Below, piece by piece: positions 745-30,730 of a stretch of DNA of 32,000 bases. The notes under the pieces were generated by a model. That model did no database searches. It saw nothing but the letters and a program-made list of their open reading frames with translations, and was not told the origin of the DNA. Within the stretch, counting starts at the first letter, position 1, and each line of letters begins with the position of its first letter. Source of the DNA: Pseudodesulfovibrio mercurii (GTDB lineage: Bacteria; Desulfobacterota; Desulfovibrionia; Desulfovibrionales; Desulfovibrionaceae). Location: contig NC_016803.1 in assembly GCF_000189295.2 (NCBI RefSeq), positions 2,730,001 to 2,762,000 of the forward strand. Reading direction: 5' to 3'. A program made the translations under genes and the position numbers.

Positions 745-746
745 GG

Positions 747-1875: not shown

Positions 1876-1891
1876 AGCAAAGTGCATTCCT
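1876..1891 (-). promoter_or_regulatory. weak sigma54-type promoter candidate (AGGAATGcactTTGCT)
   Basis: On the minus strand it has exact GG-N10-GC spacing and a perfect -12 TTGCT, but the -24 half keeps only GG. It lies about 40 nt upstream of the ATG at 1835 and next to an AT-rich tract. Confidence 0.3.
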
Positions 1892-2073
1892 TTTCCGCGA
1901 CGGCGAAACGATGATTCGCAACATACTGTATTTAATTGATCTATTCGCTTGCCGCCGGACGGTTTCCCGGAACGGACGCCGCCGGCTCCGAGGATGAAAG
2001 AATAACCTTGCATGCCCGGGGGCACCGTCACCGGAGGCCTGTGATGGTCCGGGATTTCAGCGGGTTGAAGAAA

Positions 2074-2089
2074 TGGCGCGCAATTTGAT
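2074..2089 (+). promoter_or_regulatory. sigma54-type promoter candidate, variant -12 (TGGCGCGcaatTTGAT)
   Basis: The -24 half (TGGCGCG) is good and the spacing is correct, but -12 reads TTGA instead of TTGC. It lies 36 nt upstream of ATG 2125, which has an AAAGGAG RBS. Confidence 0.4.
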
Positions 2090-2124
2090 TCAAGGGGAGG
2101 AAACAACAGGCAAAGGAGTTGCAC

Positions 2125-2349
2125 ATGGACAGGGATCGAGTGGATTTTTACTGCCCCAATTGCGGATACAGGCGGACCGAGCTGTTCTATGCCCCTGATT
2201 CGGACGATTTTCGGGCCGGGGATTGCCAGTCCGCCAACGGCGAACACGAGCGCAGCGTCCTGGCGGCGGTCTGTCCCGAATGCGGGCACGAGGGCTTTGT
2301 GCGCAGCCGGGAGTACCCGGGGGCGCGCGAGGCGGACCGCGATGGATAG
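2125..2349 (+). CDS. small zinc-ribbon protein (two CxxC pairs)
   Basis: 74 aa counted from ATG 2125; the track starts at TTG 2119. GGAG lies 6 nt upstream. It carries CPNC and CPEC pairs about 35 aa apart. Its stop is 9 nt before the next gene. Confidence 0.6.
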   Translation: MDRDRVDFYCPNCGYRRTELFYAPDSDDFRAGDCQSANGEHERSVLAAVCPECGHEGFVRSREYPGAREADRDG

Positions 2350-2358
2350 GCGCGAGGG

Positions 2359-3366
2359 ATGACCGCCATGCAGACCGGAAAGGGACTTGCTCCCCGCCTC
2401 GACACCTGCGTCATCGGTTGCGGGGGGTGCGGCTTCGCCCTGGCCCGGCAAACCTGGGAGCGGTCAGCGGGCCGCATCCCCGGACTCGGGATCGTCGGGA
2501 CGGCGGACGGGGAGGGGGTGCATGTCGAGGCCTGGCCGGATACGGCGTTTTCCCGGTCCCTGTCGGTCTCCCTGGCCTCGCCCGGCGGACGGCAGCCCGT
2601 GGATCTGGAGGGGCTCAAGCTCGTCCAGGTCGTCGGGAACATCGGCGATTCGGCCTTCGGTCATTGCTCAAGGCTGGTGGTGGATCGCATGACCTGGGCG
2701 GGGATACCCGTCCTGGCGAGCTGCGTCCTGCCCCGGCGGCGGGGAGAGCGGAAGCGCGCCATGCCCCGGTCGCTCAGGAGGATCGCCATGCGCGTCGGCT
2801 CGGTGTTCCTCTTCCCCGAGGGGCATGTGGAGGCGCAGCCGGGCGCGGCGGCCTGTTCCGTGCCGGAGACGGACGTCATCGTCGATCAGTTGCTCTTCTC
2901 GGCCTCGGCCGACGGCTTGTTCTTCCTGCGCGAATCCACGGCATCGCCCCGGAGGCTGTCCCATGGGCGGTACTGCGTGTATTGCCGCGTGGCGGCGGAT
3001 GACGGGTTCGAATTTTTCGGAACGCCGGGCAAGGCGCCGGGCCGGGCCGTGTTGTTGGGCGCGAGGCTGCTGGCGGTGCACCTGAACGCGTACGACCCGG
3101 ACCGGGCCGGACGCATGATCTGGGCGGCGTCGTGGGAGTCGGACGAGCCCCGCCCGGACACGATTTTCAGCACGCTGCCCGTCCCGTCCCTCGGGTACGC
3201 CCTTGCCGAGTCGGTCGTGGCCGTGGATATCGCGGACGAGGCGGCCGAGGCCTTTGTCCACGTGGAGGTGGGACGTCCGGGGCCGGTCCCCGGGGGCGGG
3301 ATACCCGACCACACCTGGACCGAGGAGGAGCTGGAGATTCCGGCGTTCCTCCGCCGTCTGGAATAG
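2359..3366 (+). CDS. divergent FtsZ/tubulin-like protein with degenerate GTP-binding loops and a retained FtsZ C-terminal peptide
   Basis: 335 aa; an alternative start at ATG 2368 has better RBS spacing. CVIGCGGCG (2407..2433) aligns with the FtsZ T1 loop VIGVGGGG. LVQVVGNIGDSAFGH...IPVLASCVLPRRRGERKR aligns by eye with FtsZ MVFIAAGMGGGTGTG...ILTVAVVTKPFNFEGKKR. The C-terminus EELEIPAFLRRLE (3334..3357) matches the FtsZ tail DIPAFLRK. Confidence 0.7.
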   Translation: MTAMQTGKGLAPRLDTCVIGCGGCGFALARQTWERSAGRIPGLGIVGTADGEGVHVEAWPDTAFSRSLSVSLASPGGRQPVDLEGLKLVQVVGNIGDSAFGHCSRLVVDRMTWAGIPVLASCVLPRRRGERKRAMPRSLRRIAMRVGSVFLFPEGHVEAQPGAAACSVPETDVIVDQLLFSASADGLFFLRESTASPRRLSHGRYCVYCRVAADDGFEFFGTPGKAPGRAVLLGARLLAVHLNAYDPDRAGRMIWAASWESDEPRPDTIFSTLPVPSLGYALAESVVAVDIADEAAEAFVHVEVGRPGPVPGGGIPDHTWTEEELEIPAFLRRLE

Positions 3367-3487: not shown

Positions 3488-3835
3488 TCACCGGTTTCGC
3501 TCCCCCGGCGTCGCCGGAGGGCCGTCGTCCTGTCCGTTCGCCGGGATCGGCGGGGCGTCGGGATGATCGGTGAAGGGACGCCATCCGCCATCGAGCAGCA
3601 GGAGACAGGACCAGCACTCCTCGCGCAGGATGCCGATGGCCCGGCCCAGCATGGTCGCGAAGTCGAGTTCGCTCATGCCCAGGCCCTTGATGAGGCCGGA
3701 ACGGCCGTACCGGTCGTCGCTGGCGACGACCGTGAGCATGGCGATGTCCGTGATGCCCCATTCATCGGCGAGATAGCTTCTCCGTGGCTCGCTCAGGTCG
3801 GGCAGGCGGTCCAGGCGCAGTTCGGGGGCGGTCAC
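3488..3835 (-). CDS. hypothetical protein (115 aa)
   Basis: GTG 3835..3833 overlaps the TGA of the upstream gene (GTGA), which suggests translational coupling. The core looks protein-like (SYLADEWGITDIAMLTVVASDDRYGRSGLIKGLGMSELDF...WSCLLLLDGGW). The longer 169-aa form in the track has an Arg/Gly/Pro-rich N-terminus that overlaps the upstream gene. Confidence 0.5.
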   Translation of the reverse strand: MTAPELRLDRLPDLSEPRRSYLADEWGITDIAMLTVVASDDRYGRSGLIKGLGMSELDFATMLGRAIGILREECWSCLLLLDGGWRPFTDHPDAPPIPANGQDDGPPATPGERNR

Positions 3836-4320
3836 AGCTTCGCTTCCTCCCCGGCGCCGGTCGAGGAATCGAGTCCCCTGAGGGCGGCTTCGATCTCCTC
3901 CTTGAGGCGCTCCCTGGCCCGGATGTCGTGGAGCGCCGTGGCCAGGTCCTCCACGACCCGCTCCCGCTTGGCGCCGTCCAGCCAGAACGGGAGCCACTTG
4001 CCGTCAAGCCGTTCCGCGTTGTCCGGGCTGTCCAGGACAACGCACATGTGCCGCATTTCGTCGGTGAGCCGGGCCTTGAGGGCCTGGATTTCCTCGAGTT
4101 GCGTCCTGAGCCTGGACAACTGTTCGATGCGCCGGCGTATCTCCCCTTTCAGGAGGACGATGCGTATGCCGGACCGGAGGACCTCCGACCGGATGGACTG
4201 TTGCCGGTCGAGCAGGGAGGACGATGCGGCCGCCGTGGCGGCCTCAACCCGCCATTCCCGCGCCAGGACGGCCCCGGCCACGAGAAGGCAGACGGCCAGA
4301 GTGAACAGGACGGTCCTCAT
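3832..4320 (-). CDS. secreted or membrane-anchored coiled-coil protein, paralogue of 16053..16559
   Basis: 162 aa with an N-terminal hydrophobic signal/anchor (MRTVLFTLAVCLLVAGAVLA) and a heptad-like charged helical body. It carries the motif KWLPFWLDGAKRER at nt 3958..3999. Confidence 0.8.
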   Translation of the reverse strand: MRTVLFTLAVCLLVAGAVLAREWRVEAATAAASSSLLDRQQSIRSEVLRSGIRIVLLKGEIRRRIEQLSRLRTQLEEIQALKARLTDEMRHMCVVLDSPDNAERLDGKWLPFWLDGAKRERVVEDLATALHDIRARERLKEEIEAALRGLDSSTGAGEEAKL

Positions 4321-4478
4321 CTCGATCCCTCCCGTCGCCGCAATCCGCTGCCTCCGCGAACGGACGTTGCGGTGCGCCTGCGGGGGGCCGGAGCGTCCCG
4401 GTCCCTCCGGGGGATGCCGCCGGGATCACGGCCCGGCGGACACTCGATGTTCCCTTGAACCACGGTGCAACGGTGCAT
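4317..4478 (-). CDS. possible 53-aa leader ORF translationally coupled to 3832..4320
   Basis: ATG 4478 is preceded by AAAGGAGGAG. Its TGA overlaps the ATG of the next gene (ATGA). The product (MHRCTVVQGNIECPPGRDPGG...RRREGSR) is Arg/Pro/Gly-rich, so it may be only a 5' UTR that happens to be open. Confidence 0.25.
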   Translation of the reverse strand: MHRCTVVQGNIECPPGRDPGGIPRRDRDAPAPRRRTATSVRGGSGLRRREGSR

Positions 4479-4515
4479 GGCTCCTCCTTTTGCGTCGTCG
4501 TCTTTCGTCGGGAGC

Positions 4516-4531
4516 AGCAATAGCCATGCCA
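4516..4531 (-). promoter_or_regulatory. sigma54 promoter (TGGCATGgctaTTGCT)
   Basis: Near-perfect match on the minus strand to TGGCACG-N4-TTGCW. It lies 38 nt upstream of the RBS/ATG at 4478 and directly downstream of a ~70-bp AT-rich tract (4537..4605). Confidence 0.75.
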
Positions 4532-4686
4532 GGGGAGTTGATTGATTTATGTCGAGTATATCATATTGAATTTATGAGCTATTCATTGTCTGCACAAAAA
4601 AATGGAGCCTGGCGGGTGTGAGGCGGCGCGTGATGCCGGAGCAACGCGTGTGACGCCGGATCAGCGGCGCGGGCGACCCGGTGGGG

Positions 4687-5169
4687 TCATTCGTCCGCCG
4701 GGCCGAGCAGCTCCAGGACGACCTCGTCGATGAGCAGGCCGAAGTCGTCCGCGCCCTGGTTGAGCATGGCGAGGGTGTACGGGTCGATGGGTGTTTCGGC
4801 CGTCACCTGCGCGATGACGTCCTTGAGGGATTCGCCGCCGAGCTTGAGGTCCATGAACATGACCCGCCATTCCTTGAGAAAGGCGGGGTCCTTGGGCGTG
4901 GTGTTGCGGAAGATCGTGCGCAGCATGTGGAGCGTGTCCATCAACCGGACGAACTCCTTGGCGGAGGTGGCCACGACGCACAGCCGCATTTGGTCCATGT
5001 TGGAGAACCGCACCGTGGACTTGGCGTTTTCATAGAGCTCGAACCCGATGCTCGACATCTTTTCGTCCATGGACATCCGGTTGAGGGCTTCATCCGAATA
5101 TCCCTGCCCGAAGGCCGGGAGGACCGACATGAAACACGTGATGAGCAGTGTGAGGATGGTTGTCTTCAT
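4687..5169 (-). CDS. secreted hypothetical protein (160 aa)
   Basis: ATG 5169 is preceded by AAGGAA. The signal peptide is MKTTILTLLITCFMSVLPAFGQG and the mature part is helical. The extra 30 codons in the track lie upstream of the RBS. Confidence 0.75.
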   Translation of the reverse strand: MKTTILTLLITCFMSVLPAFGQGYSDEALNRMSMDEKMSSIGFELYENAKSTVRFSNMDQMRLCVVATSAKEFVRLMDTLHMLRTIFRNTTPKDPAFLKEWRVMFMDLKLGGESLKDVIAQVTAETPIDPYTLAMLNQGADDFGLLIDEVVLELLGPADE

Positions 5170-5504
5170 TTGCGTTTCCTTGGGCGATGCGCCCGCTTGC
5201 GGCTCGTGAGGGATCGGACCGCCGCCCACCCGGAGAGAACGCATGCCGGAGCGGCCCAACGGTATCGCCTTGTTTCTTCATCCTGTTTCGCAATGAACGG
5301 CCACTCCGGCCCGTCTCTCCGTTGCGCGGGCCGGGTCGTCCCCTGCGGCGGCCGGGTCGGGCAAGGCCTTGGAGGCCGCCCTTGTGAGCATGGACCCGAT
5401 GCACGGCGGGCCGTGTGATGTTTTTACTCACGCCCGAACGATGCTCGAATAAAATTAAACAATAAAACCATAAAGTTAATCTTGCAAGCCCCTGTCGTCT
5501 CGCC

Positions 5505-5520
5505 TGGCATGGCCCTTGAA
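5505..5520 (+). promoter_or_regulatory. sigma54-type promoter candidate, variant -12 (TGGCATGgcccTTGAA)
   Basis: Perfect -24 half and correct spacing, with TTGA at -12. It lies 81 nt upstream of ATG 5601 and is preceded by an AT-rich tract (5446..5483). Confidence 0.45.
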
Positions 5521-5600
5521 AGAACAGGGTCGTTTCCCGGTCTCCTTATGCATCGGGAGTGCCAATTCACGGGTATCGAAGCACTGTGGGAGCTGCGTTC

Positions 5601-7799
5601 ATGTCATTCATGCTTTCCAACTCGACCTTCTCGCTGAAGGAGTACGGCCTGGTTTCCGAAGACGATCGGTTCGCCATGGGAATGGCCTGCGGCTGGTTGA
5701 AGAACCTTCTGCGCTCGGGGGTCAATCTCGATTCGTCCATGCTGAGGCTGCTCGGCTGGATACACAACGGCGCGGAAGAGGCCATCTGCCGGGTCGCCTG
5801 CGAGCGGTGCGCCGTCCGGCCCGCCTTGCGGAAGAACGGCGAAGAGTTGGCCGAGGCCGAGGACCGCGACGCCAGACTGTTCGTCTTCGACAGGATCATG
5901 GCCCTCGCCCATGGCGAGCTGCGTCTGGCCGTGCGCAAGGCCGCATTGGAGATGCTGTCCCGGGTCGATTTCCATCCTGATCCGGACATGCACCTGGTGC
6001 GCGCCATAACCAATTTCCAGAAGGTCTTCGATCTGAGCGAGCTGGAGACGCGGCTCTGCCTCTTTCTCTACGTCCTCGCCACCTGGAGCGAATGCGAACA
6101 GTATTTCGAGGACACGTTGAAGTGCAACGGCAGGACCAACCATACCGTCCTGGCCATCCTGCTCGACACCAGCCTCTTCAAGCTGCGCCGGGTCATGAAT
6201 GGGAAACTGGACCGGCTGGCGATCCTGGAAAGGAACATCAGCGGCCGGGTCGTCTTCAACTCCCTCTACAGCCGGTTCTTCGAGGACTGCGAACCCGAGC
6301 GCGTGGCAGAATCCCTTTTCGAGACCCTCGCCGGCAATCCCGTGCCCCTCGACGAGTACATCCTGGATGCCGGGGACCGGGAGTGCATACTGGAATTGTT
6401 GCGGAACGCCGGCGACGTCCCGACCCACATCCTGCTCCATGGCGTGCCCGGCGCGGGCAAGACGAGTTTCGCCCACTCGCTGGCGCACGCCCTGGGCGTT
6501 CCGGCCTACAACGTGCCCATCTCCCGGGGCAAGGACGACATGCCCCGCGCCACCGGAATCGAGGCCTGCCTGAACATGACCAACGGCGGCAGGAACGCCC
6601 TTGTCATCGCGGACGAGGCCGACGTCCTGCTGAACACCCTGCGCGGGTATCTCCTGTCCGGAGAGCGCCAGGACAAGGGGTGGCTCAATGAGTTGCTCGA
6701 GCGGCCGGGGGTGCGCATCGTCTGGATAACCAATTCCATCGAGGACGTGGAGGATTCGGTCCTGCGGCGCTTCTCGTACAACATGAAATTCACCCCGCTG
6801 ACGGCGGCGCAGCGGGAGGTGCTCTTCGACCGGATTTTGCGGAAGCACAAGGTGAAGAGCCTGGTGCCGTCGCGGGAGATCCGGGGCCTGGTGAGGGAAT
6901 ACCCCGTGTCGGCCGGGGTGGTGGACCTGTCGGTCCGTCAGGCCCGGGCCATGTGCGGTCGGGACGCGGGGCGTTTCGTCCGGACGCTGCGCCGACTGCT
7001 GGCCGCCGCGCAGAGTCTTGCGGAGGACCGCGCACCCGGCGGAAAACGGTTCGAGATGGAAGAGGGCTACTCCCTCGACGGACTCAACTTCGACACCGAC
7101 ATCAAGGCGCTCATGCGCGATCTCGAACGGTACGACGCGTACCTGAAGTCCGGGCGCAACGACCTGATCCTCAATCGCAACGTCCTGCTGTACGGTCCCC
7201 CCGGAACGGGCAAGACCGCGTTCGCCAAGTACGTCGCCTCCCGTCTGGGACGGCGGCTTCTCGTCCGGCGCGCCAGCGACCTGCTCTCCAAGTGGGTGGG
7301 CGGGACCGAGGAGAATCTCGCCCGGGCCTTTGCAGAGGCCGAACGGGAAGGGCACGTGCTGCTCGTGGATGAGGCCGACAGCTTCATCTCTTCGCGAGAC
7401 CAGGCCATGCATCGTTGGGAGATCAGCCACGTCAACGAATTCCTGACCCAGATGGAAACCTTCCGGGGCATCCTCATCTGTTCGACCAACCGGGCCGACG
7501 AGCTTGACGCCGCTTCCCGGCGACGCTTCACCCACAAGATACGGGTCGATTACCTGACCCGCCATGGGAACCTGGTGTTCTTCGACAAGATACTCGGTCC
7601 GTATTTCCGGGGAAAGCTGAATGGCGCAGCCAGGTCCCGCCTGGCCGGACTGGCCGACGCCGCGCCGGGCGATTTCAAGGTGGTTCGCGACAAGATCGTC
7701 CTGGAGCCCCGAGGGACGTACAGCGGCGAACGGTTGTTGCAAATGCTCGAAGAGGAGGTCGCCGCCAAGCGGCGGAGACGGCCCTGTATCGGATTCTAG
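5601..7799 (+). CDS. tandem AAA+ ATPase (two P-loop modules) with an unknown ~270-aa N-terminal domain
   Basis: 732 aa from ATG 5601, with GGGAG 8 nt upstream. D1 has Walker A GVPGAGKT (6441..6464) and Walker B LVIADEADVL. D2 is a classical AAA module: GPPGTGKT (7194..7217), Walker B LLVDEADSF, and ILICSTNRADELDAASRRRF. Confidence 0.9.
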   Translation: MSFMLSNSTFSLKEYGLVSEDDRFAMGMACGWLKNLLRSGVNLDSSMLRLLGWIHNGAEEAICRVACERCAVRPALRKNGEELAEAEDRDARLFVFDRIMALAHGELRLAVRKAALEMLSRVDFHPDPDMHLVRAITNFQKVFDLSELETRLCLFLYVLATWSECEQYFEDTLKCNGRTNHTVLAILLDTSLFKLRRVMNGKLDRLAILERNISGRVVFNSLYSRFFEDCEPERVAESLFETLAGNPVPLDEYILDAGDRECILELLRNAGDVPTHILLHGVPGAGKTSFAHSLAHALGVPAYNVPISRGKDDMPRATGIEACLNMTNGGRNALVIADEADVLLNTLRGYLLSGERQDKGWLNELLERPGVRIVWITNSIEDVEDSVLRRFSYNMKFTPLTAAQREVLFDRILRKHKVKSLVPSREIRGLVREYPVSAGVVDLSVRQARAMCGRDAGRFVRTLRRLLAAAQSLAEDRAPGGKRFEMEEGYSLDGLNFDTDIKALMRDLERYDAYLKSGRNDLILNRNVLLYGPPGTGKTAFAKYVASRLGRRLLVRRASDLLSKWVGGTEENLARAFAEAEREGHVLLVDEADSFISSRDQAMHRWEISHVNEFLTQMETFRGILICSTNRADELDAASRRRFTHKIRVDYLTRHGNLVFFDKILGPYFRGKLNGAARSRLAGLADAAPGDFKVVRDKIVLEPRGTYSGERLLQMLEEEVAAKRRRRPCIGF

Positions 7800-7921: not shown

Positions 7922-8188
7922 ATGAAAGTAGATGAAATACTTGAGAAAATAAGCACAGATGTCGACCTTGAGAAGGATGTCAACATCCTGGGCAAACCGA
8001 TCAAACGGTTCCTGAAGGCCGCCCAGGAGGAAACGGGCCTGGGTGCCCTGGAGATTCTTGAGAGTGCGCGCGGGCATCTGGTGACCGGTGATTTCCTTGT
8101 GCTGACCATTTCCGGCAAGGATTTCGTCTATTTCCTCTCCGAGGACGAATACCTGGTGGACGGGATGGTCTTCGAAAAGGGCAAGTAG
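7922..8188 (+). CDS. small acidic hypothetical protein (88 aa)
   Basis: ATG follows GGTGGA. Composition is protein-like (MKVDEILEKISTDVDLEKDVNILGKPIKRF...). It has lower GC than its neighbours and lies 122 nt downstream of the AAA+ gene. Confidence 0.6.
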   Translation: MKVDEILEKISTDVDLEKDVNILGKPIKRFLKAAQEETGLGALEILESARGHLVTGDFLVLTISGKDFVYFLSEDEYLVDGMVFEKGK

Positions 8189-8407: not shown

Positions 8408-11400
8408 TCAGTCCCGAGGCCCGAAGTATGCGGACAGGCAGCCGTTGAGGTGATTTTTCACGGTTCGCGACAATCGTTTGATCCCCAATATGTTCGCCAC
8501 GTCTCGGACCCTGTCGTCACTGGCGGCGAGTCCCGGATGGGCGGCGATGAGCCCGAATATCTCGTGCCGGGAGATCTCGGTGGCGCTTCGGCCCTCTATG
8601 GAGCGGAACGGCACGGTTTCCCGGCAGCTCCCCGGAGCCCAGATGAAGGTCGTCCCGGCCTCCGGGCGGCGTTCTTTTCCGTCCAGGCAGGCATCGATCC
8701 GCTCCCTGATCCTGGCCCCGGTCCGTTTCCATCCATGGGCCTTGCAGATGGTCCGGGCCAATCGGTTGGCCTCGATGGGCCCTTCGGCTGCGACGAGAAC
8801 GTCGATCATCCGGGCCAGGATCGGGGTGTAGTCGGGGTCGAAAAACCGGTTCGCGTCCGGCTGGACCGGCCGGTTGACGGCGGCCTCTTCCTCCGGGGCG
8901 TCCGCTGAAGGCGTTTGCTCCGGTTCCGCAGGGGCGACCGTTTCCGGGCCCACCGGATTCGGGGACAGGTCCTCCGTCCGCCCGATTCCGGCATGGAGCC
9001 GCCGTTGCGGGGCGGGCGGGGCGACCGTCGGGCCGGCCATGCCGGCGGCGAGCCCACGGGGAAGGTCTGGCCATTCCCGCCGCGCCTCCGAACGGCTCTC
9101 GGCCCGGGCCGCTTCCTCCTCCTCCCGCCGCCGGGACGCCTTGAGCAGTCCCTCCAGTTCCTCATGCACCCGTTGCAGCGCTTCGGACGGATTCATGAAC
9201 CAATCCGCGGACCAGATGCGGAGGATGTTCCATCCGAGATTGCGCAGCACGGCCTCGCGGATTTCGTCGCGGTCCCGGGCTGTTGCGGAATGATGGTAGG
9301 TCGCGCCGTCGCACTCGACGCCCGCGAGATAGGCCCCGGCATGGTCGGGGTGGACCACTCCGAGATCGATCCGATACCTGGAGACCCCGATCCGGGGCCG
9401 CACTTGCCACCCCCTGGCCTCCAGGGCCGCCATCACCGCCTCTTCGAACGGGCTCTCGGCATCCTCCGTCGAATCGGCGTTCATGGCGGGCAGGGCGATC
9501 GGGCCGTTCTCGGCGTACTCCAGGAAGTTCTTGAGATGGGCCACGCCGAGGGCGTTGGTCCTGGAAGTATCCATGTCGTCGGCGTCGATGGAAGAGAAAA
9601 CGTGCATCTCGCGGCGGGCCCGGGTCACGGCGACATTCAGGCGTTTTTCGCCGCCGTCGCGGTTCAATGCGCCGAAGCTCATCGACATCTTCCCGGCTCC
9701 GTCGCGGCCGAAGGTGACGGAGAAGCACATGATGTCGCGCTCGTCTCCCTGGATGTTCTCCAGGTTCTTGACGATGACCGGCTCTTCCCGCTCGTCGCTG
9801 AAATACCATTCCAGGTCCGGGTTGGACCGCCTGGCCTCGTCGAAGAGATTGAGGATCAGTTCCTGTTGCTGGATGTTGAAGGTGATGACCCCGAGCGTGG
9901 GACGGTCCCCCTCGGGCCGTTGGAGCCAGCTTTCCAGGCGCGATTGGGCGAAGCGCACGATCTCCCGCGCCTCCTCAAGGTTGGTGCGGCCCGTTCCCCG
10001 CGCATAGGTCCCTTCGTTCCTGTGGAGGACCAGGGCCTTCGATTCGGTCGCGGGCGATGGAAAGGTGATGAGTTCGCCGTGGTAATAATGGTGGTTGGAA
10101 AAGGCGATCAGCGACTCGTCGCGGCTGCGATAGTGCCAGTTCAACCGGATCGGCGGCAGGCCCGCCGCATCGGCCTCCTCGAGAATGCTCGGCAGGTCCT
10201 TTTCGTATTCGGCCAGGTCCTCCGCATCCTCGTCGTCGGTGCGGCCGAAAAAGTTGGTGGGGGGCAGCTGTTTCGGGTCGCCCACGATGATGGATTGCCG
10301 CGCCCTGGCGATGGCCCCGACCGCATCCCAGGTCGTGATCTGCGAGGCCTCGTCGAAGATGACCACGTCGAACTGCGTTTGATCGGCAGGGAGATATTGC
10401 GCCACGGACAGCGGCGACATCAACATGCACGGCGTCAGCTTGGTGAACGTGGTCGGCATGCCTTCGATGAGTTTGCGGATGGAGAGGCTCGGCCGTTGCA
10501 GGCCGAGCTGGTGGCGCAGCAATCCCAGCTCGGACCGGCGGGGCACGGCGTTCCTGGTGGGCAGGTCATGGGAGACATTCCTCAGGACCTGGTCGGCGGC
10601 CAGCGCCCGCACCGTTCTGTCGCGCCGCCTGAATTCCTTGATCAGGTCCTCGTGGGACCAGTGGCGGAAACCCCGGAGTTCGGAGCTGGCGTCCAGGGCC
10701 AGGGGCAGCCACCATGTGAAGTAGGCCGCGCGGAAATCGGCGCGGGCATCCTCTATCTCTCCGTCCCGGAGGGCGTCCAGGAAGGCGCCGAGCCCCAGCG
10801 TCCTGGCCTCTTCCCTGACGGCCGCCCATCGGGTCCAGTCCGCCAGTTGCGCCCTGTGGTCGACGAGGAGGCGGAGGTCCCCGGCCAGGGCCTCCAGGGA
10901 GGTCGCGTGCGGTTCGCCCCCGGCGTGGGCCGAGTAGGCGTCGCGGGCGTCCTGGAATCTCGCCAGCGCGGAGTGGAACTTCTCGGCCAGGAGCGCCGCC
11001 TCGGGTTTGTCTCTCCGGAGCAGGGCCTCCAGCGTGTCCGCGAAACGATTTGCATCCGAGGCGTGCCGCCGCACATCGTCGAGCGCCCGCTGCAGTTTTT
11101 CCGTCTCTCTCAGATAGGCGGCGACCTGGGTTCCGTCGGTGTCCTCGTGCCGGAAGACCGGGAGGTTGGCCAACTCGCTCCGATCGACGGTTTCGAGATT
11201 GTCGCGGAGCCGCCTCAGGGGCTCTATCTCACCGGCCACGTCGACCCTGCCGTCCGTTGCGTAGCCCTGGAGCAGACGGGTGACCCGGCGGCGCGCCCAG
11301 GCGGAGAATGGCCACATCCGGGCGTTGGCCTCCCGCCATTGCCGGTCGATGTCCTCTATGGGGAGGCGCCGCAATGCGGAGTTTTCGTAATCGGCCGACA

Positions 11401-21618: not shown

Positions 21619-21644
21619 GGAATCCTCCTGTTTTCCCCTCGTTG

Positions 21645-23248: not shown

Positions 23249-23293
23249 CTCGGCTCCTTGTTGCGTGCTTGTGTTGGGTTCCACCCCGCCATA

Positions 23294-23309
23294 ATCAAGG
23301 AGCATGCCA
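23294..23309 (-). promoter_or_regulatory. sigma54-type promoter candidate, variant -12 (TGGCATGctccTTGAT)
   Basis: On the minus strand the -24 half is perfect and the spacing exact, with TTGA at -12. It lies 46 nt upstream of ATG 23248, with an AT-rich tract (23331..23368) upstream. Confidence 0.45.
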
Positions 23310-23706: not shown

Positions 23707-26700
23707 ATGGAAAGAGACGAGTTCCTGGCCCTGGTCGGCCAGTTGGTGAAGAGCGACGATCCAACGGTGCGCGGCCTGGGCCAATGCATGCGGAACGTGT
23801 TCGGCAAACGGGAGGTGTTGCCCTGCCGCCTGCTCGACGAGGTGGACGTCCTCAGCCGGGCGGTGGATCTGTACTTTCCCCGGCCGTTCGTGGCCCGGTA
23901 CAATGCCTACAAGGAAGCCGAGGAGATGCTGGCCGCCCTGGCGGACTCGGACGACCTCAGCTATGCGGCCGCGCTGAAGGACGCGGCCGACAAGTTGATC
24001 CTGCTGTGGAAGCTGGTCTTGAACTTCCTGCCGTTTCTTTTCGTCGGGGCCATCCAGCGCATGGGCGGCAAGGCGCTGGCGGAGGCCGCCGAGGCCGAGT
24101 TGCAGGAGGTGTTGCAGACCTACCGGACGTTGTTCCACGAGAACGCCACGCTCAACGAGGGGGAGCAGGTCGCCTTCGTTCTGCTCCTTCTGAAGCTTTT
24201 CCGGAAACTCGACCGGCACGGCGCGCTCGGGGACAGCTTCATCCTGCATCCGCTGCTCCAGGCGCGGGGCGGGTTCGACGAGGTCTTTCCCCAGCCCTTC
24301 GGTCCGATGCTGCAATTGATCCACCAGTTCCGGAACAAGAGTTTTCACGCCTTCATCAGCGAGCGGCGACGGGACGAGGTCGCCCCGGTCAATACCATCA
24401 TGGCCTGCGTCTGTTTATACGTGGTGAAGTGCCTGCTGGGCGTTTTCGAACGATACGGGCTGTACTGGGTGACCGGGATCAACGCCCCGTCCTCGGACCC
24501 GGTCGTGACGGCCCTTTCCTTTGCCGGGGCCGCGCCCAAGGAAAAGCGGTTCAAGCTGACGAGGACCCCGTGCGCGGATTCGGAGCGCCTGGCCCTCAAC
24601 GATCTGTATCTCATCGACAACTCGAAGGTCATCACCATGGGCGGGGCCCAGCCGGTCGAGCCCATCGGGCCGACGGATTACCTCTGTCTTTCGCCGTTCG
24701 TCATCTACACCATGGAATCCCTGGACAAGGAGGTCCTCGACGGCGGAGCGTCCGCCGACCGCCCCCTGGATATCTGCGTTCTCCAGCGGTACAACGAGGT
24801 CAAGCAGTTCTTACGTTACCTGGCCCTGACGGGCCAGGTGGAGTTCTGCCTGTCCCGCGACGACCGTTTCCGGCATTTCTTTGAGAAGTACAGCCTGTTC
24901 TTCAAGAACATAGAGGGGTTGTTCGACGACGTGGGCCATGCCCCGGCGCAAGAGGCGGCCACGCCCGGCGTCGACTCAGCGGCCGCCGCCATGGCGCAGC
25001 TGCGCAAGCGGACCTGGCAGGTGTCGTGCAACCACCTGGCGGCGCTGCTCCAGGTTCAGGACTACGACGAAGACGGCAACCGCATCGTCGAGAATCCCGG
25101 TTTCGGGTTCCAGTACAAATACAATCCCGACCTGTTCGTCTTCCCGGAGGAGGGCCGTTTCTACGACGGGTTCTATGAGAGCGGGAAGCGGGCCATCGCC
25201 TTTGTCGGGGGCTCGGGCATCGGTAAATCCAGCCTGCTGTGCCACCTTTTCCTGGATGAGCGCAGGGCGGGCCGACCGGCGGTCTTTCTCGACGCCAGGC
25301 GTTTCCGTTCGGCCAGGCTGGACGAGTTCCTGGAGGAAAGCATCATCGTCCGCGCCCGAAGGGACTGGCGGATGGAGAACGCGGACCGGTTGCTCGGCGA
25401 GGCCGGGGTCCGGCTGGTGGTCTTCATCGACGCCGTCAACGAGTTCGGCGGCCCCGGCGGCCCGCTGAAGCTCATTCAGGAGATCATGGACGCAGCCCGC
25501 GACCAGTCGGCGCTCGCCAACGTCAAGTTCGTCTTTTCCTGCCGCGTGGAAACCTGGGAGCAGTACCGGAAATCCGTCAACAACCCCAAGGTGCTTCTGG
25601 AGGACAGCGTCTTCGTGGGCCAGGGGGGCGAGGCCGTCCGGGTCAACGGGTTCGAGTCGGAAACCCTGCGCGCCACCCTCTTCGATCGCTATGCGAGTTG
25701 TTTCAACCTGGTTCCCGCCACCTACGAGGAGCAGGGAGAGCCGCTGAAGGAACTGATCTGTTCCCCGTTCATGATGCGGATGATCGCGGAGGTGTACGCC
25801 AACACCTCGGAGGATGGCGCCTCGCATCGCAGGAGAAAACGCCGCAAGATACCGAAGAAGATAAATTATTTTAAACTGTTTTCCCTCCTGACGCCCCGCA
25901 AGATGGCGGATGCCGAACGGTTGTTCCCCGAGAGGGAGGTCTCGCACGACCTGCTGGAGCGGCGGTTCGACGAGTGCCTGTACGTCTTCGCCGAACTGAT
26001 CTATCGCCAGCTCATCGCCGGCGGCGACAGCTCTCCCCTGGCCATTTCCGGGGAGCGCCGGGACTCCGTGCGGATCGACGAGCTGAGCCGGAACCCCGCG
26101 TTCGGCGAGTTCATGAAGGGCCCGGTCGAAGGCGCGTCCGTCAGCATCTTCGAGGCGTTGATCCAGGTCGGCCTCATCGAGTCCGTGTACCTGCCCGAAC
26201 TCAACCGCCACGGCGAGGTCAAGTTCGGCAGGGCCTACAAGTTTTTCCACGACCAGTACACGCAGTACTGGCTGAGCGCCGTCTACAACCGGTCCGACAT
26301 CCTGGGCCGCCCCAGTCCTCGGAAGCTGCGCCGCGATCCGGAACTGCGCCGGACCACGGTGGCCAACATCCAGGACCTGATCGCCCGCTCCCAGGACGCC
26401 ATGGTCCTGGGCGGCGCGCTGGGCCACTGGCTCTATTCGATCATGTCCGACGGGCGGCCGCGCATTCAGGACGACCTGTGCCACCTGTTCAACGCCATAG
26501 CCGACACCAAATCCTCGCATGTCCGGTACATGACCGGCATGTTCCTGCACGGACTGCCCGAAAAGGGGGTGGTCTCATCGCGCGAATGGTACTCCCGGCT
26601 TTGCCGGAAGGGGAGCTTCGCCCTGCGCAGGCTGCTGACCGAGCACGTGGTCTACCTGTGGCCCAACATTGCGCCGGACGATTTCCGTGCGCTGATAGAG

Positions 26701-28206
26701 TCCCTGGGCAGGGAGGAGGACGACGTCCTGCTGCGGGAACTCGGGGACTTCCTGGCCACCCGTTTCGGCTCGGAGCCGGAGATGGTCCTGGAGTTTCTGG
26801 ACGGCATCCTGCCGAGCCTCGAAAAGCTGGACGTCGCCACTTCGACCCGGCTGTATGCGCTCAAGTCGAAGATGCACATCTATTTCAAGGTGATCACGAA
26901 ATTCGCGGTCAAGGCCGCCTTGGACTGCTGTGTGGACTGGGAAAAGATGCGGATGCTCAAGGAGTTGCTGACGCGGAAATACAGCTACGTGTTCAGGGCC
27001 TGCCTCGACGAGTCTCCCACGATGATCATGCGGGGAGTCAGGAGTTGGGTCTTTTCCCTGCTGGATGGGGTCGGGCTCAACCAGTGGGACCAGGCCATCG
27101 GCCCGCACGGGAACAATTGCTTTTTCGTGGAATTCGACGGGCTGCGGCAGCGCGACGTGCTCCACGACTTCTATCCCTACTGCGTGCAGCTGTGCAACGG
27201 CGAGTTCGACGAGCTCTCCCTGGAGCCCGATTCGGAGTTCCGGCAGGCGTGTCTGTCCCTGATCGACTACCGGCCGCGCAGCGTCATCGGCTACGTGGCC
27301 ACGGTGGTGCTCGCCGCGGTCCTGCATCGGGATGACCGCCAGATGGAGAGCGTGGTCAACGAACTGCTCGCCAGGAAGTCCGAGGCGGCCTTTTTCTTCT
27401 GCAACTACCTGCTGACGGCCCTGGGTCAGCTCAAGGTGGAGCGGTGCGCCCTCCTGTTGCCGATCATGAAGAAGGACTTCATCCCCGCGCTGGTCAGCGA
27501 GGACCAGGACGGCGAGAGCTACCTGGGCTTCCTGTTCATGGCCGCGGCGGACATGAAGGAGTTGTGGCCGGACGCGAAGGTCATCCTGGACGAACTGACC
27601 GAGCGGCTGGAGGAGATGAAGCCGGAGGCCCTGTTCTCCTTCGCCAAGGCGTTGCGCAGCCTGTGTTTCTATTCCGAGCCGCAAATGGGGCGGACCATCG
27701 CCACCCATCTGGCGCGGACGTATCTTTCGGACGCCTCCGACAACCGTCGCGAGTTCGCCAAACGGGTGCTGGCGGCCATGCTGGTGCGCGATCCGCAGAT
27801 GCTCTCGGCCATCCTGGAGTGCACGGGCAAGGGCCGCGCCCTGGAGGCCGAGGTGCTGACCTTCGTGGACGGTGAAGTGCTTCGGCTCAAGGACCAGGTC
27901 AGCTATCAGAGCGCCTGGAACAAGGTCTTCCTCACCGCGGTGACCGACAATCCCAAGGTGATGCACTATGCCTGCCGCGTGTTGCTGGGCGGTCTGGTCC
28001 AGTCGAACAGCGTCACGGAGTTCTCGCGGGAATTTCGACGGTTCGTCGTGGAGTTGGTCCGCGGCTACCTTACGGATGAGGGGCTTGACCGCCGGAAGAC
28101 GTTCACCGTACAGGAAGCGTTGTCGGAAAGTCTGGCGAGCGCCTGCTACGGGATGGACGGCGAGCCATGGACCGACGTCGAGGACAGGGTTGAAAAACAG
28201 CAGTGA
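23707..28206 (+). CDS. NACHT-type STAND NTPase (1499 aa) with a ~480-aa N-terminal region carrying an RNxxxH motif and a ~900-aa helical-repeat C-terminus
   Basis: ATG 23707 is preceded by GGAGAGG. Walker A is GGSGIGKS (25207..25230), Walker B is LVVFIDAVNEF (about 25414..25446), and a TSR-like FVFSCR lies downstream. The N-terminal region contains LIHQFRNKSFHAF (RNKSFH at 24331..24348). The C-terminal half is rich in Leu/Ala/Glu/Arg and looks like helical repeats. Confidence 0.9.
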   Translation: MERDEFLALVGQLVKSDDPTVRGLGQCMRNVFGKREVLPCRLLDEVDVLSRAVDLYFPRPFVARYNAYKEAEEMLAALADSDDLSYAAALKDAADKLILLWKLVLNFLPFLFVGAIQRMGGKALAEAAEAELQEVLQTYRTLFHENATLNEGEQVAFVLLLLKLFRKLDRHGALGDSFILHPLLQARGGFDEVFPQPFGPMLQLIHQFRNKSFHAFISERRRDEVAPVNTIMACVCLYVVKCLLGVFERYGLYWVTGINAPSSDPVVTALSFAGAAPKEKRFKLTRTPCADSERLALNDLYLIDNSKVITMGGAQPVEPIGPTDYLCLSPFVIYTMESLDKEVLDGGASADRPLDICVLQRYNEVKQFLRYLALTGQVEFCLSRDDRFRHFFEKYSLFFKNIEGLFDDVGHAPAQEAATPGVDSAAAAMAQLRKRTWQVSCNHLAALLQVQDYDEDGNRIVENPGFGFQYKYNPDLFVFPEEGRFYDGFYESGKRAIAFVGGSGIGKSSLLCHLFLDERRAGRPAVFLDARRFRSARLDEFLEESIIVRARRDWRMENADRLLGEAGVRLVVFIDAVNEFGGPGGPLKLIQEIMDAARDQSALANVKFVFSCRVETWEQYRKSVNNPKVLLEDSVFVGQGGEAVRVNGFESETLRATLFDRYASCFNLVPATYEEQGEPLKELICSPFMMRMIAEVYANTSEDGASHRRRKRRKIPKKINYFKLFSLLTPRKMADAERLFPEREVSHDLLERRFDECLYVFAELIYRQLIAGGDSSPLAISGERRDSVRIDELSRNPAFGEFMKGPVEGASVSIFEALIQVGLIESVYLPELNRHGEVKFGRAYKFFHDQYTQYWLSAVYNRSDILGRPSPRKLRRDPELRRTTVANIQDLIARSQDAMVLGGALGHWLYSIMSDGRPRIQDDLCHLFNAIADTKSSHVRYMTGMFLHGLPEKGVVSSREWYSRLCRKGSFALRRLLTEHVVYLWPNIAPDDFRALIESLGREEDDVLLRELGDFLATRFGSEPEMVLEFLDGILPSLEKLDVATSTRLYALKSKMHIYFKVITKFAVKAALDCCVDWEKMRMLKELLTRKYSYVFRACLDESPTMIMRGVRSWVFSLLDGVGLNQWDQAIGPHGNNCFFVEFDGLRQRDVLHDFYPYCVQLCNGEFDELSLEPDSEFRQACLSLIDYRPRSVIGYVATVVLAAVLHRDDRQMESVVNELLARKSEAAFFFCNYLLTALGQLKVERCALLLPIMKKDFIPALVSEDQDGESYLGFLFMAAADMKELWPDAKVILDELTERLEEMKPEALFSFAKALRSLCFYSEPQMGRTIATHLARTYLSDASDNRREFAKRVLAAMLVRDPQMLSAILECTGKGRALEAEVLTFVDGEVLRLKDQVSYQSAWNKVFLTAVTDNPKVMHYACRVLLGGLVQSNSVTEFSREFRRFVVELVRGYLTDEGLDRRKTFTVQEALSESLASACYGMDGEPWTDVEDRVEKQQ

Positions 28207-28219
28207 GTCAGGAACCAAT

Positions 28220-29284
28220 ATGAGTTTTCTATGCAAAAAATTCATGCAGGGTTTTGATAGGACGTATCTTTCCATCAAGAATAAGCACAAGACATGCAGC
28301 CTGCATCTGAACCCCGACCCCTTCGACGGGCGGGTATACACCATCGACGAATTCTACGAGGGATATAAGAAGTATTTCGACGATCCGTTGGGTTTCTACA
28401 ACGATTACGCCCCCGAGGACGGCATATGCCTCCGGGACGGTCGGCACCACCGGGACACGTCCGAAGCCCAGGCCCCTTTCCGCTACATGGTGTTCGATTC
28501 GCCGGTCCCTTCGCCGTGGGAGGAGAACAACCTGGTGCCGTTCAAGTGGTTCACCAACCCGGAAAAACCATCCCGGACGCTGTTGCTTTTCGCGCCGGGA
28601 TGGGGACGGACCAGCCAGTCCTTCGAGGAGGTCTGGTGCCGCAAATTGCAGGAGATGGGGGTCGATTGCGGCCTGACCACCGTGCCGTACCATCAGGCGC
28701 GCACGCCACAGGGCTCGTTCTCCGGGGAGTACTGGATCAGCGCGAACCTCTTTTTCACCATCGCCAACTTCCGGCTCTACACCGCGGAGTTGCGGCTGCT
28801 GTTCCAATACATGAAGCGGCGGTATGACTACGTCGGGTTCATCGGCATGAGTTCCGGCGGGTTCCAGACCGCCCTGGCGGCCAATTGCGAACCGGCGGAC
28901 TTCCTGTTCCCGATGATCACCGGCGGGAACCTGGCGGACATCACCTGGGACGGACTGATAACGACCTACGTCCGGCAGGACCTGGAGGCCAAGGGCGTGA
29001 CCCGTGAGCAGCTCGCCCGGGTCTGGAGCGTCACCGACGAGTGCGTTCTGGGCAGGCACTGCAAGGCCCGGTACATCAAGCAGTACATCTCCATGTACGA
29101 CGAGGTGGTGGGGACCGAGAATCAGCTGGCCATGTGGGAGGCCATCGGCAGGCCGGACAGGATGATGGTCCCGTCCGCCCACTACTCCGTGTATTTCTTC
29201 GGCAACCGGATCCTCAGGGACATCGCCCGCATGGTGGCCGAGAACGTGGCCGGGTGGAGCCGCTCCCCAGGGTCGGCGGCCTAG
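28220..29284 (+). CDS. alpha/beta-fold hydrolase (354 aa)
   Basis: ATG 28220 is preceded by AGGAA at 5 nt and lies 13 nt after the NTPase stop. The nucleophile elbow is GMSSGG (28844..28861). The upstream 84 codons in the track overlap the NTPase gene. Confidence 0.85.
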   Translation: MSFLCKKFMQGFDRTYLSIKNKHKTCSLHLNPDPFDGRVYTIDEFYEGYKKYFDDPLGFYNDYAPEDGICLRDGRHHRDTSEAQAPFRYMVFDSPVPSPWEENNLVPFKWFTNPEKPSRTLLLFAPGWGRTSQSFEEVWCRKLQEMGVDCGLTTVPYHQARTPQGSFSGEYWISANLFFTIANFRLYTAELRLLFQYMKRRYDYVGFIGMSSGGFQTALAANCEPADFLFPMITGGNLADITWDGLITTYVRQDLEAKGVTREQLARVWSVTDECVLGRHCKARYIKQYISMYDEVVGTENQLAMWEAIGRPDRMMVPSAHYSVYFFGNRILRDIARMVAENVAGWSRSPGSAA

Positions 29285-30456
29285 CGTCCGATCTTGCGCT
29301 TGCCGCTGGCCCAGCAGCGGCGCAGGGCCTGGGCGTTGTTGCCCAGGATCAGCCCCACGTGCCTCCAGCTGAGGTTCCCCTGATGGGCGAGGTGGCTGCG
29401 CGCCGAGGCGATGAGCCGGAGGCGGTCCTCGCCCCGGAGCCCCTCCTCGGTGATCTTGCGCAGGGACAGGTACCGCTTCCACAGGGCGTTCGAATCGGCG
29501 TCGGCCCTGCTGGGCTCGATGCCCTGGATCATGGTTTCCACCTCCGCCGGGGTCGCCTGCTCCCGCAGGACGGCCAGGGCGCGCTCGGTGTCGCGCAGCA
29601 GGGCGTCGATGAGCTTGGTCGCGGTGGCGGAGGGGCGGCCGAGGAAATCGGGGCAGATCTTGAGATACCGCGTCCCGATGCGATCGTCCCCCTCGTGCAG
29701 GGCCCAGTCGAAGGCCGCGGCCATGACGTTCTCGAGTTCCCGGATGTTGCCGGGCCAGTCGTGGCCGGCCAGCGCCTCCAAGGCATCCTCGGAGATGGCC
29801 ATCCCGTCGATGTCCATTTTTTCGCACTGGAACTTCAGGAAATGCCGGGCCAGGGCGCGGATGTCCCCCTCGCCGCGTTCGCGCAACGGCGGCAGGCACA
29901 TCTCGTGAACGGAGATCCGGTAGAACAGGTCCTCGCGGAACCGTCCTTCCTCGACGAGCGCCCGGAGATCCCTGTTGGTCGCCAGGATGACTTTCAGATC
30001 CGCCTGAAAGGTCTGGGTCCCTCCGACGCGGCGGTAGCTGCCGTCCTGGAGGAACCGCAGCAGCCGGGGTTGCTGTGAAAGCGGCATTTCGCCGATTTCG
30101 TCCAGGAAGAGGCAGCCGCCGTCCGCCGCCTTGACCAGGCCGTCCGTGGCCCTGTCGGCGCCGGTGTACGCCCCCTTGTCGTGCCCGAACAATTCGGAGG
30201 AGAACAGGGCGTCGGTGAAGTCGGCGCAGTTGAGGCGGACGATGCGGCCGCCGTATCGGGACAGGCTCCGGATGTGGTCGGCCAGGAGCTCCTTGCCCGT
30301 GCCCGACTCCCCGTGGATCAGGACGGGACGGTCGGACAGGGCCGCGACCTTGGCGAAGTCGCGGACCCGCTCCATGGCGGCGCATTCGCCGATCATCGCC
30401 TTGACCGGGGACGGATTGCGGAAGAGCCTCGCCTCGTTGGTGCCGGTCCTGATCAT
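29281..30456 (-). CDS. sigma54-dependent transcriptional activator (bacterial enhancer-binding protein) lacking an N-terminal sensory domain
   Basis: 391 aa from ATG 30456, with an AAGGAGG RBS. Walker A is GESGTGKE, followed by SSELFGHDKGAYTGA (the GAFTGA loop), Walker B CLFLDEIGEM, and WPGNIRELEN. The C-terminus has a Fis-type HTH (GNLSWRHVGLILGNNAQALRR). Only about 20 aa precede the AAA+ core. Confidence 0.95.
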   Translation of the reverse strand: MIRTGTNEARLFRNPSPVKAMIGECAAMERVRDFAKVAALSDRPVLIHGESGTGKELLADHIRSLSRYGGRIVRLNCADFTDALFSSELFGHDKGAYTGADRATDGLVKAADGGCLFLDEIGEMPLSQQPRLLRFLQDGSYRRVGGTQTFQADLKVILATNRDLRALVEEGRFREDLFYRISVHEMCLPPLRERGEGDIRALARHFLKFQCEKMDIDGMAISEDALEALAGHDWPGNIRELENVMAAAFDWALHEGDDRIGTRYLKICPDFLGRPSATATKLIDALLRDTERALAVLREQATPAEVETMIQGIEPSRADADSNALWKRYLSLRKITEEGLRGEDRLRLIASARSHLAHQGNLSWRHVGLILGNNAQALRRCWASGKRKIGR

Positions 30457-30714
30457 GATGTCCCCCTCCTTGTCTGTTTCCGATCCATCGCGTGAGGGAC
30501 CTCCCCTCACACCAGGGCCTTTTGGCGGCCAACGGAAACTCGCGTCGGTTTTGTCGGGAAAACAGGCGGGAGATATCAGGTGATTTACATAAATGGCTTG
30601 ATATGTTCGCTGGTTGGGAGTTAACACAAGACAGTGTATTTTCGGGGACGGCAGCGTGTTCCGTTCCGGCCCGCCTGTCAGGCGCCATCGGACGGGGGTG
30701 CGGGGACGGCCCGG

Positions 30715-30730
30715 TGGCGAGGTTGTTGCA
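30715..30730 (+). promoter_or_regulatory. sigma54 promoter (TGGCGAGgttgTTGCA)
   Basis: Exact GG-N10-GC spacing with a perfect -12 TTGCA. It lies 61 nt upstream of ATG 30791 and is divergent from the enhancer-binding protein gene. Confidence 0.7.

Follow-up and report, generated by a model that had tools for sequence, protein, structure and literature searches.

Does a single activator coordinate the seven sigma-54 promoter elements that crowd into 32 kb of one bacterial chromosome? This question is raised by a 32,000-nt stretch of Pseudodesulfovibrio mercurii (NC_016803.1, positions 2,730,001 to 2,762,000; hereafter the window, in which positions are counted from the first letter). The organism, formerly Desulfovibrio sp. 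ND132, is a mercury-methylating sulfate reducer, and no literature naming the locus tags of this region could be found. The window has a GC content of 66%, and ∼26 genes were recognised in it on the basis of third-position GC and ribosome-binding sites, with which independent gene calls on two public contigs are concordant; 10% of the window is intergenic. An initial annotation, made from the sequence alone, had proposed that seven -24/-12 elements and one sensor-less enhancer-binding protein (29281..30456) bring very different gene modules under common induction. The best reading of our results is a local regulon in the style of PspF and HrpS, which comprises at least five and probably seven transcription units and encodes mostly envelope proteins.

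Seven sigma-54 promoter elements

Both strands of the window were scanned with a 19-nt weight matrix derived from 87 sigma-54 promoters of Desulfovibrio vulgaris Hildenborough (Kazakov et al., 2015; PMC4641369, Additional file 6), so that the sites were not judged by a pattern fitted to them; all promoter and motif counts given here refer to this 32-kb window. The seven elements (P1 to P7) were all present with the coordinates, strands and sequences given in the initial annotation, and they occupied ranks 1–6 and 8 of ∼64,000 scanned positions, rank 7 being a coding match of 12.0 bits. In 500 dinucleotide shuffles of the whole window, 1.19 matches of at least 12 bits, 0.40 of at least 14 bits and 0.06 of at least 17 bits were expected, compared with 7, 5 and 3 observed, and not one of these shuffles attained the observed counts at any of the three thresholds. 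When only intergenic DNA was shuffled (2000 times), the expected counts were 0.19 at 12 bits or more and 0.06 at 14 bits or more versus 6 and 5 observed, and the highest count in any shuffle was 2 at both thresholds. The proposal that the elements exceed chance expectation was thus borne out. The comparison with coding sequence that the initial annotation had called for gave the same answer within this one window: among 57,160 coding positions (both strands) a single match reached 12 bits, which is the null expectation, against six in intergenic DNA. The enrichment was 30- to 80-fold relative to shuffled intergenic DNA, and the sites were also enriched relative to the coding DNA of the window.

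Leave-one-out scores of the 87 real promoters had a 10% quantile of 11.4 bits, a 25% quantile of 14.4 bits and a median of 16.7 bits; within this range P5, P3 and P6 are typical, and P1 and P2 fall in the lower-middle part. For D. vulgaris, with a genome of ∼3.8 Mb, ∼87 promoters genome-wide correspond to about one per 43 kb, compared with seven in 32 kb here. Judged by their sequence, the seven elements are real sigma-54 promoter features, and it is very likely that at least five of them are functional.

The best match in the window is P5 (21645..21660(-), TGGCACGcctcCTGCT; matrix match 21644..21662(-), 18.9 bits, rank 1), which ends 26 nt before ATG 21618 of a ten-gene envelope operon. P3 (4516..4531(-), TGGCATGgctaTTGCT; 4515..4533(-), 18.2 bits, rank 2) lies upstream of a small open reading frame (ORF; 4317..4478) that is followed by two genes for secreted proteins (3832..4320 and 3488..3835). 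P1 (1876..1891(-), AGGAATGcactTTGCT; 1875..1893(-), 15.5 bits, rank 4) ends 40 nt before the ATG of an AAA_5 ATPase gene (747..1835) and reads AGGAATG-N4-TTGCT; a similar -24 element, TGGAATG, is that of D. vulgaris DVUA0089. The weakest of the seven, P7 (30715..30730(+), TGGCGAGgttgTTGCA; 30713..30731(+), 11.0 bits, rank 8), ends 60 nt before ATG 30791. These four elements have the arrangement GG-N10-GC (4/7). The other three (3/7) have GG-N10-GA, with TTGA at -12: P6 (23294..23309(-), TGGCATGctccTTGAT; 23293..23311(-), 17.3 bits, rank 3) ends 45 nt before ATG 23248, a start picked by its ribosome-binding site; P2 (2074..2089(+), TGGCGCGcaatTTGAT; 2072..2090(+), 14.7 bits, rank 5) ends 35 nt before ATG 2125 of a zinc-ribbon gene, after which the orphan gene 2359..3366 follows; and P4 (5505..5520(+), TGGCATGgcccTTGAA; 5503..5521(+), 12.0 bits, rank 6) ends 80 nt before ATG 5601 of a double AAA+ ATPase gene. 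The TTGA promoters may represent a subclass with different basal activity.

As had been claimed, the sites point at the first gene of a unit: all seven face the adjacent gene from a promoter-bearing intergenic region and end 26–80 nt before a start codon that has a ribosome-binding site. None of the seven was located in the convergent spacer, in the spacers before and after the helicase gene (8408..14281) or in terminator-type spacers. None of the seven units has a sigma-70 consensus match upstream; in the spacers, only the STAND gene has such a match ahead of its start (23620..23649). The spacers have no long repeats in common, so that duplication of a single cassette does not account for the short elements. 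Upstream of the STAND-hydrolase pair (23707..29284), the activator gene and the gene at 4687..5169, no sigma-54 match was present apart from one at 5548..5566(-), which faces the last of these genes with 10.4 bits. We rejected this eighth candidate as probably due to chance, because it lies 379 nt from the start codon and has no activator site upstream, and because 0.5 intergenic matches of at least 10 bits are expected.

The activator encoded in the window

The protein encoded by 29281..30456(-) (391 aa) had been described as a sigma-54 activator, which was readily confirmed: it matched the Pfam family Sigma54_activat (PF00158) with 197.9 bits against a cut-off of 20.2 bits (E = 1.3e-58) and carries a Walker A motif (GESGTGKE, residue 49), the loop GAYTGA (residue 95) and a Walker B motif (LFLDEI, residue 116). 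Its AAA+ domain extends over residues 21–249 and is followed by a C-terminal region of 140 aa that is predicted, with low confidence, to be all-helical. The Pfam match and every PDB alignment begin at residue 21, and the start codon, ATG 30456, has a strong ribosome-binding site and coincides with the end of the coding signal. Because the AAA+ domain begins so close to a supported start, the activator has no sensor domain, as the initial annotation had also concluded; the public annotation of this protein as having a PAS/PAC sensor is wrong, no PAS domain being detectable. Among the window proteins scanned against Pfam, it is also the only recognisable transcription regulator, again in agreement with the earlier description. 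The C-terminal stretch GNLSWRHVGLILGNNAQALRR bears a likeness, by eye only, to a Fis-type helix-turn-helix (HTH), and a DNA-binding domain in this modelled helical region is plausible. The stop codon of the gene is overlapped by 4 nt by the end of the alpha/beta hydrolase gene.

Paired TCACRC sites upstream of five promoters

A search for words shared among the 220 nt upstream of the seven -24 elements yielded the hexamer TCACRC. Eleven of its 21 copies lie in the intergenic 10% of the window (binomial p 1.5e-6), where they form five clusters of two or three that are confined to the spacers of P3 to P7; the 10 coding copies are all single. Paired copies are found in 5/6 promoter-bearing spacers versus 0/4 others (Fisher p 0.024). 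As a control independent of the choice of TCACRC, all 1920 strand-collapsed hexamers were ranked by intergenic enrichment. CTCACA/TGTGAG came first, with 7/8 copies intergenic (p 7.7e-7, or ∼1.5e-3 after correction), and TCACAC, CCTCAC and CACACG ranked fourth, fifth and ninth, respectively.

The five clusters are candidate activator sites. For P3, three half-sites in one orientation are present at 4616..4653, 85–122 nt upstream of the -24 element. The candidate for P4 is GTGTGA-N9-TCACGC at 5413..5433 (72–92 nt upstream), near which a weaker TGTGAG occurs at 5383, and that for P5 consists of two CTCACAC copies 20 nt apart at 21758..21783 (98–123 nt upstream). P6 is preceded by TCACAC-N9-GCGTGA at 23431..23451 (122–142 nt upstream), in a divergent spacer that it has in common with the STAND gene. 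The candidate for P7, GCGTGA-N11-TCACAC at 30490..30512, is an inverted pair located 203–225 nt upstream of the -24 element; it is part of a perfect inverted repeat, GTGAGGG-N5-CCCTCAC, and at the same time lies 34–56 nt upstream of the start codon of the activator gene, which suggests that the activator may regulate its own expression. The overall range, 72–225 nt upstream of -24, is the usual distance of sigma-54 upstream activator sites. Between P1 and P2, only a degenerate pair could be found (2025..2044, TCACCG..CTGTGA; one half-site only, 9.8 bits), which is weak and perhaps non-functional. The published catalogue of sites bound by Desulfovibrionales activators does not contain TCACAC/GTGTGA, which fits an activator with a specificity of its own.

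The promoters are also accompanied by AT-rich tracts, located between them and the clusters. Upstream of P1, P3, P4, P5 and P6, the most AT-rich 40-mer has a GC fraction of 0.17–0.35 and lies 4–21 nt from the -24 element; 40-mers this rich in AT make up 0.7% of those in the window. Matches to the IHF consensus WATCAANNNNTTR were not enriched (4 versus 4.35 expected), and only one site with one mismatch (30591..30603) was located between an activator site and its promoter. We therefore refer to these regions as bendable or architectural-protein tracts rather than as IHF sites.

A proposed local regulon and its alternatives

On the basis of the current results, control by the local sensor-less activator through TCACRC clusters appears to be the best explanation for the coordination of these promoters, and we hold it with moderate confidence. 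The mechanism that we infer includes the identity of the TCACRC-binding protein, joint induction of the units, the way in which they are controlled and what their products do. RNA polymerase with sigma-54 would read each unit from its -24/-12 promoter. The activator would bind the TCACRC sites, assemble into a ring and contact the closed promoter complex by looping of the DNA over the AT-rich tract, and it would then spend ATP to open the promoters, so that the units are switched on together. In the absence of a sensor domain, what controls the activator is probably either the level at which it is expressed or a partner in trans, by analogy with PspA for PspF and HrpV for HrpS. The proposed co-induction as one unit thus received partial support: paired TCACRC sites precede five of the seven promoters, and P1 and P2 have no clear pair.

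A number of observations weigh against this explanation. P1 and P2 stand back to back, 183 nt apart, in the spacer that has no clear TCACRC pair, and the scores of P4 and P7 are low, close to the lowest tenth of real promoters, yet within their range. The spacing of the half-sites is heterogeneous (12, 15, 15, 17, 20 and 20 nt) and their orientation is mixed, with direct copies 12 or 20 nt apart, inverted pairs with 9- or 11-nt spacers and everted ones with a 9-nt spacer; such variable geometry is unusual for a single dimeric binding mode, and no one dimer geometry explains it. No match of the activator to HTH_8 was obtained in Pfam even at E<5, and the AlphaFold model of its last 147 residues is all-helical with a confidence too low for structure searches (predicted local distance difference test (pLDDT) 54). 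Because the DNA-binding domain is unrecognised by Pfam and the model has low confidence, the link between the activator and TCACRC is one of co-location only. Comparisons gave no support either: no ortholog of the activator was present among 5.8 billion proteins, the next best matches having ∼50% identity in the AAA+ domain only, and the 335-aa orphan encoded by 2359..3366 had no homolog in the same set. Likewise, the ExbB-like and PcfJ-like proteins of the envelope operon had no relatives in scans of species-representative genomes, and the double-AAA protein had none in a viral-contig scan.

Several other explanations should be considered. The promoters could be real and some or all of them served by enhancer-binding proteins encoded elsewhere, with the local activator acting only on unit 7 or on a subset. 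D. vulgaris encodes 37 sigma-54 activators (PMC4641369), and a relative of it probably has many too; in addition, P1 and P2 score well without a clear TCACRC pair, and the local activator has no recognised DNA-binding domain. However, the same rare paired motif recurs before five promoters over 26 kb and beside the activator gene, and it matches no published site of a Desulfovibrionales activator. We therefore regard this alternative as unlikely, although another activator, of which Desulfovibrionales typically have many, may fire some of the seven promoters. Still less probable, in our view, is that only the sites with GC at -12 (P1, P3, P5 and P7) work and that the TTGA sites only look like promoters, having decayed or lacking function. 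Few positions are as strongly conserved as the C at -12, and just 1 of the 87 D. vulgaris promoters, that of DVU0805, has TTGA, a rarity that also counts against a full set of seven. On the other hand, DVU0805 is itself a precedent for TTGA, the three sites rank 3rd, 5th and 6th in the window, and each of them is followed at 35–80 nt by the initial start codon of a unit for which no sigma-70 consensus alternative was found; P4 and P6 moreover have both paired TCACRC and AT-rich tracts.

The TCACRC pairs might also be bound by another regulator, of the CRP/FNR type or encoded by unit 7, and the activator might work from solution without DNA binding, in the manner of Helicobacter FlgR and Chlamydia CtcC. 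The half-site indeed resembles the CRP/FNR half-site TGTGA/TCACA, and the lack of a detectable HTH_8 would agree with this possibility. Nevertheless, we consider it very improbable, because CRP/FNR dimers require a 6-nt spacer (TGTGA-N6-TCACA), an arrangement that none of the TCACRC pairs has, their spacers being 9 or 11 nt or the copies being direct repeats 12 or 20 nt apart. No CRP/FNR gene was found in Pfam scans of the window proteins, and the activator keeps a helical C-terminal extension of 140 residues with a Fis-type HTH likeness by eye; activators that dispense with DNA binding are not known to carry such an extension. As for the possibility that the promoter matches are due to chance or to the composition of GC-rich DNA, single matches of 12–14 bits do occur in coding DNA, both here and in control loci, but the whole-window and intergenic-only shuffles effectively refute it. 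All seven sites are intergenic and correctly oriented whereas coding DNA stays at the null expectation, and the probability left to such an artefact is negligible. The local activator acting through paired TCACRC sites is thus the explanation that we prefer.

Transcription units and their products

Within the units, genes overlap or are separated by gaps of at most 52 nt. Unit 1 (1..1835(-)) encodes the MoxR-type AAA_5 ATPase (747..1835) and then a 1012-aa HEAT-repeat protein whose gene runs off the left end of the window. Unit 2 (2125..3366(+)) consists of the genes for a 74-aa double zinc-ribbon protein and the 335-aa orphan, which is identical to DND132_2459. The initial annotation had taken this unit for an FtsZ-like pair, an assignment that could not be sustained: the product of 2359..3366 has no match of any kind, to tubulin/FtsZ or otherwise, in Pfam, NCBIfam or PDB sequences, and its partner is the zinc-ribbon protein. 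The AlphaFold model of the orphan (pLDDT 32) is unusable, and a very remote fold likeness to FtsZ may have escaped detection. Unit 3 (3488..4478(-)) contains the small ORF, the gene for a secreted coiled-coil protein (3832..4320) and that for a 115-aa protein (3488..3835). The small ORF (4317..4478(-), 53 aa) has a strong ribosome-binding site, starts 37 nt past P3 and overlaps the start of 3832..4320; its product may be a leader peptide or a small protein. Next to this unit, and outside the seven, is a gene for a secreted 160-aa protein (4687..5169(-)).

Unit 4 (5601..7799(+)) is a single gene for a 732-aa protein with two AAA+ modules, the second of which is IetA-like (PADLOC E 5e-35; NCBIfam IteA E 4e-32); no IetS-type protease partner was found nearby. 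The 608-nt spacer after this gene contains an 88-aa ORF (7922..8188(+)) with clearly lower GC than its surroundings and no family match. Unit 5 (14440..21618(-)) comprises ten genes, which encode, in order, a TPR lipoprotein, a coiled-coil protein, a small secreted protein, ExbB-like and ExbD-like proteins, a protein that is TonB-like by its architecture, a membrane protein, an SLT lytic transglycosylase, a paralog of the product of 3832..4320 and a PcfJ-like protein. The two paralogous secreted coiled-coil proteins (3832..4320 and 16053..16559, both on the minus strand) have 35% identity (E 3e-19) and share the motif KWLPFW.D.AKRER; they belong to different sigma-54 units (3 and 5). None of the envelope proteins of unit 5 had a match in PADLOC or PHROGs. 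The unit is closed, after the PcfJ-like gene, by a long GC-rich hairpin (14374..14426) with a short U-tract. Unit 6 (22035..23248(-)) encodes two membrane-anchored proteins whose genes overlap by 4 nt, and a strong hairpin follows it at 21956..21991 (z-score -3.8). Unit 7 (30791..32000(+)), which is divergent from the activator gene, encodes a protein of more than 403 aa and runs off the right end. This product had been suggested to be a sigma-like factor, but we found no Sigma70_r2, Sigma70_r4 or other Pfam match even at E<5 for the part of the gene that is in the window.

Two further loci appear to stand apart. The helicase-nuclease gene (8408..14281(-), 1957 aa; DUF4011, AAA_11, AAA_12, MTES_1575 nuclease and DUF3320) matches the PADLOC candidate defence family PDC-S37 (1204 bits, E = 0) and Hhe. 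It has an AT-rich upstream region of its own and, as the hairpin at 14374..14426 between it and the envelope operon ends unit 5, it is probably outside the sigma-54 set. The STAND-hydrolase pair (23707..29284(+)) encodes a 1499-aa STAND-type NTPase with a weak Avs2/NACHT P-loop match in PADLOC and then an RcgR-like alpha/beta hydrolase.

Judging by N-terminal signal and anchor sequences, most products of units 3, 5 and 6 are predicted to be envelope proteins, and the ATPases of units 1 and 4 are cytoplasmic. The output of the system is probably an inducible apparatus that spans or remodels the envelope. Besides the two cytoplasmic AAA+ ATPases, the products include an ExbB/ExbD motor, the TonB-like protein, a lytic transglycosylase, lipoproteins and coiled-coil proteins that are secreted or anchored in the membrane. 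Three genes of the region are of defence type, namely those for the PDC-S37/Hhe helicase-nuclease, the Avs2-like STAND protein and the IetA-like ATPase.

Relatives and origin of the region

Most genes of this stretch are orphans, and those that were tested mostly had no close relatives. A tblastn search against plasmids gave two remote PcfJ-domain matches and nothing for ExbB, and megablast of 10 kb against plasmids gave no match. Outside the reference genome, the exact genes were found only on short contigs (8.0 and 5.4 kb) from a single run, SRR3926153; if this run is RNA-seq, the region would be shown to be expressed. The AAA_5 ATPase is the one family with relatives (55–62% identity in Planctomycetota, Myxococcota and other phyla). 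In three independent loci with otherwise unrelated neighbourhoods, it is followed by a HEAT/VWA protein (1165–1312 aa), and this two-gene module, in which a HEAT/VWA protein of 1000–1300 aa always comes second, is widespread in variable, partly defence-like neighbourhoods. No sigma-54 matrix match was present upstream of the AAA_5 relatives in the loci examined, and P1 therefore looks like a local acquisition.

One further idea is that a mosaic of acquired modules is kept tightly switched off by its dependence on sigma-54; each module would have been refitted locally with a -24/-12 element and TCACRC sites, and one sensor-less master activator would release them all. The MoxR-HEAT/VWA pair, the IetA-like ATPase and the orphan machine with ExbBD, the TonB-like protein and transglycosylase could be cited as such modules. 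Given the three defence-type genes, the set might then respond inducibly, at the level of the envelope, to phage or to damage of the envelope. We think this idea rather doubtful. No integrase or tRNA gene and no Rfam family was detected in the window, and the region is a candidate rather than an established horizontally acquired island.

If the local regulon is real, it would be a compact one, about twenty proteins of unknown function being governed by a single activator through one candidate enhancer motif and seven promoters. Overexpression of a single 391-residue protein should then turn on the whole set and reveal the ExbBD-centred apparatus and the roles of the two AAA+ ATPases, and the locus would clearly exemplify how genes of different origin come under one sigma-54 switch. 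The TTGA promoters, beside those with a canonical -12 element, also provide a natural series for the tuning of sigma-54 promoters at this position.

Comparison with known systems

The closest parallels are found among activators without sensor domains. Like PspF of the enterobacterial psp system, the activator combines an AAA+ domain with a C-terminal DNA-binding region (here a candidate one), its gene is divergent from a sigma-54 target and has activator sites close by in the spacer common to both, the output is related to the envelope and control is expected in trans. It differs from PspF in several respects, however: it scores 235 bits against the 443-bit cut-off of the PspF equivalog TIGR02974, its loop is GAYTGA and its C-terminal domain is not a recognisable Fis-type HTH. 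Moreover, there are seven promoters here rather than two, and no PspA/IM30 homolog was found among the window proteins scanned against Pfam. The hrp islands of Pseudomonas syringae and Erwinia, with HrpS or HrpR-HrpS, likewise encode a sensor-less activator within the island, with a trans-acting partner. Both HrpR/HrpS and PspF lack regulatory domains and are held in trans, by HrpV and PspA, respectively, and GAYTGA is the natural loop of HrpS (PMC3105312). The present locus differs in that sigma-54 promoters lie directly on each unit, the product of the neighbouring gene has no sigma-70 domains and type III secretion genes are absent. HrpRS fire a single promoter, that of hrpL, and the ECF (extracytoplasmic function) sigma factor then runs the rest of the hrp island.

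By comparison, the likeness to the VasH (type VI secretion) and FleQ/FlrA (flagellar) clusters is looser. These also combine one cluster-encoded activator with several sigma-54 promoters and a multi-operon envelope machine, but VasH and FleQ/FlrA carry N-terminal regulatory domains and their targets are well-known machines, whereas no type VI or flagellar genes were found among the window proteins scanned. The sigma-54 regulome of D. vulgaris (PMC4641369) differs in that its promoters are spread genome-wide, TCACRC is not among its described sites and the present activator has no ortholog. It agrees in the promoter consensus, tGGcacg-N4-tTGCt, in the occurrence of activators without N-terminal domains (4/37) and in the position of the activator sites 100–200 nt upstream. 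The regulatory principle of the locus is already known; what is new about it is its cargo, its motif and how many promoters it has.

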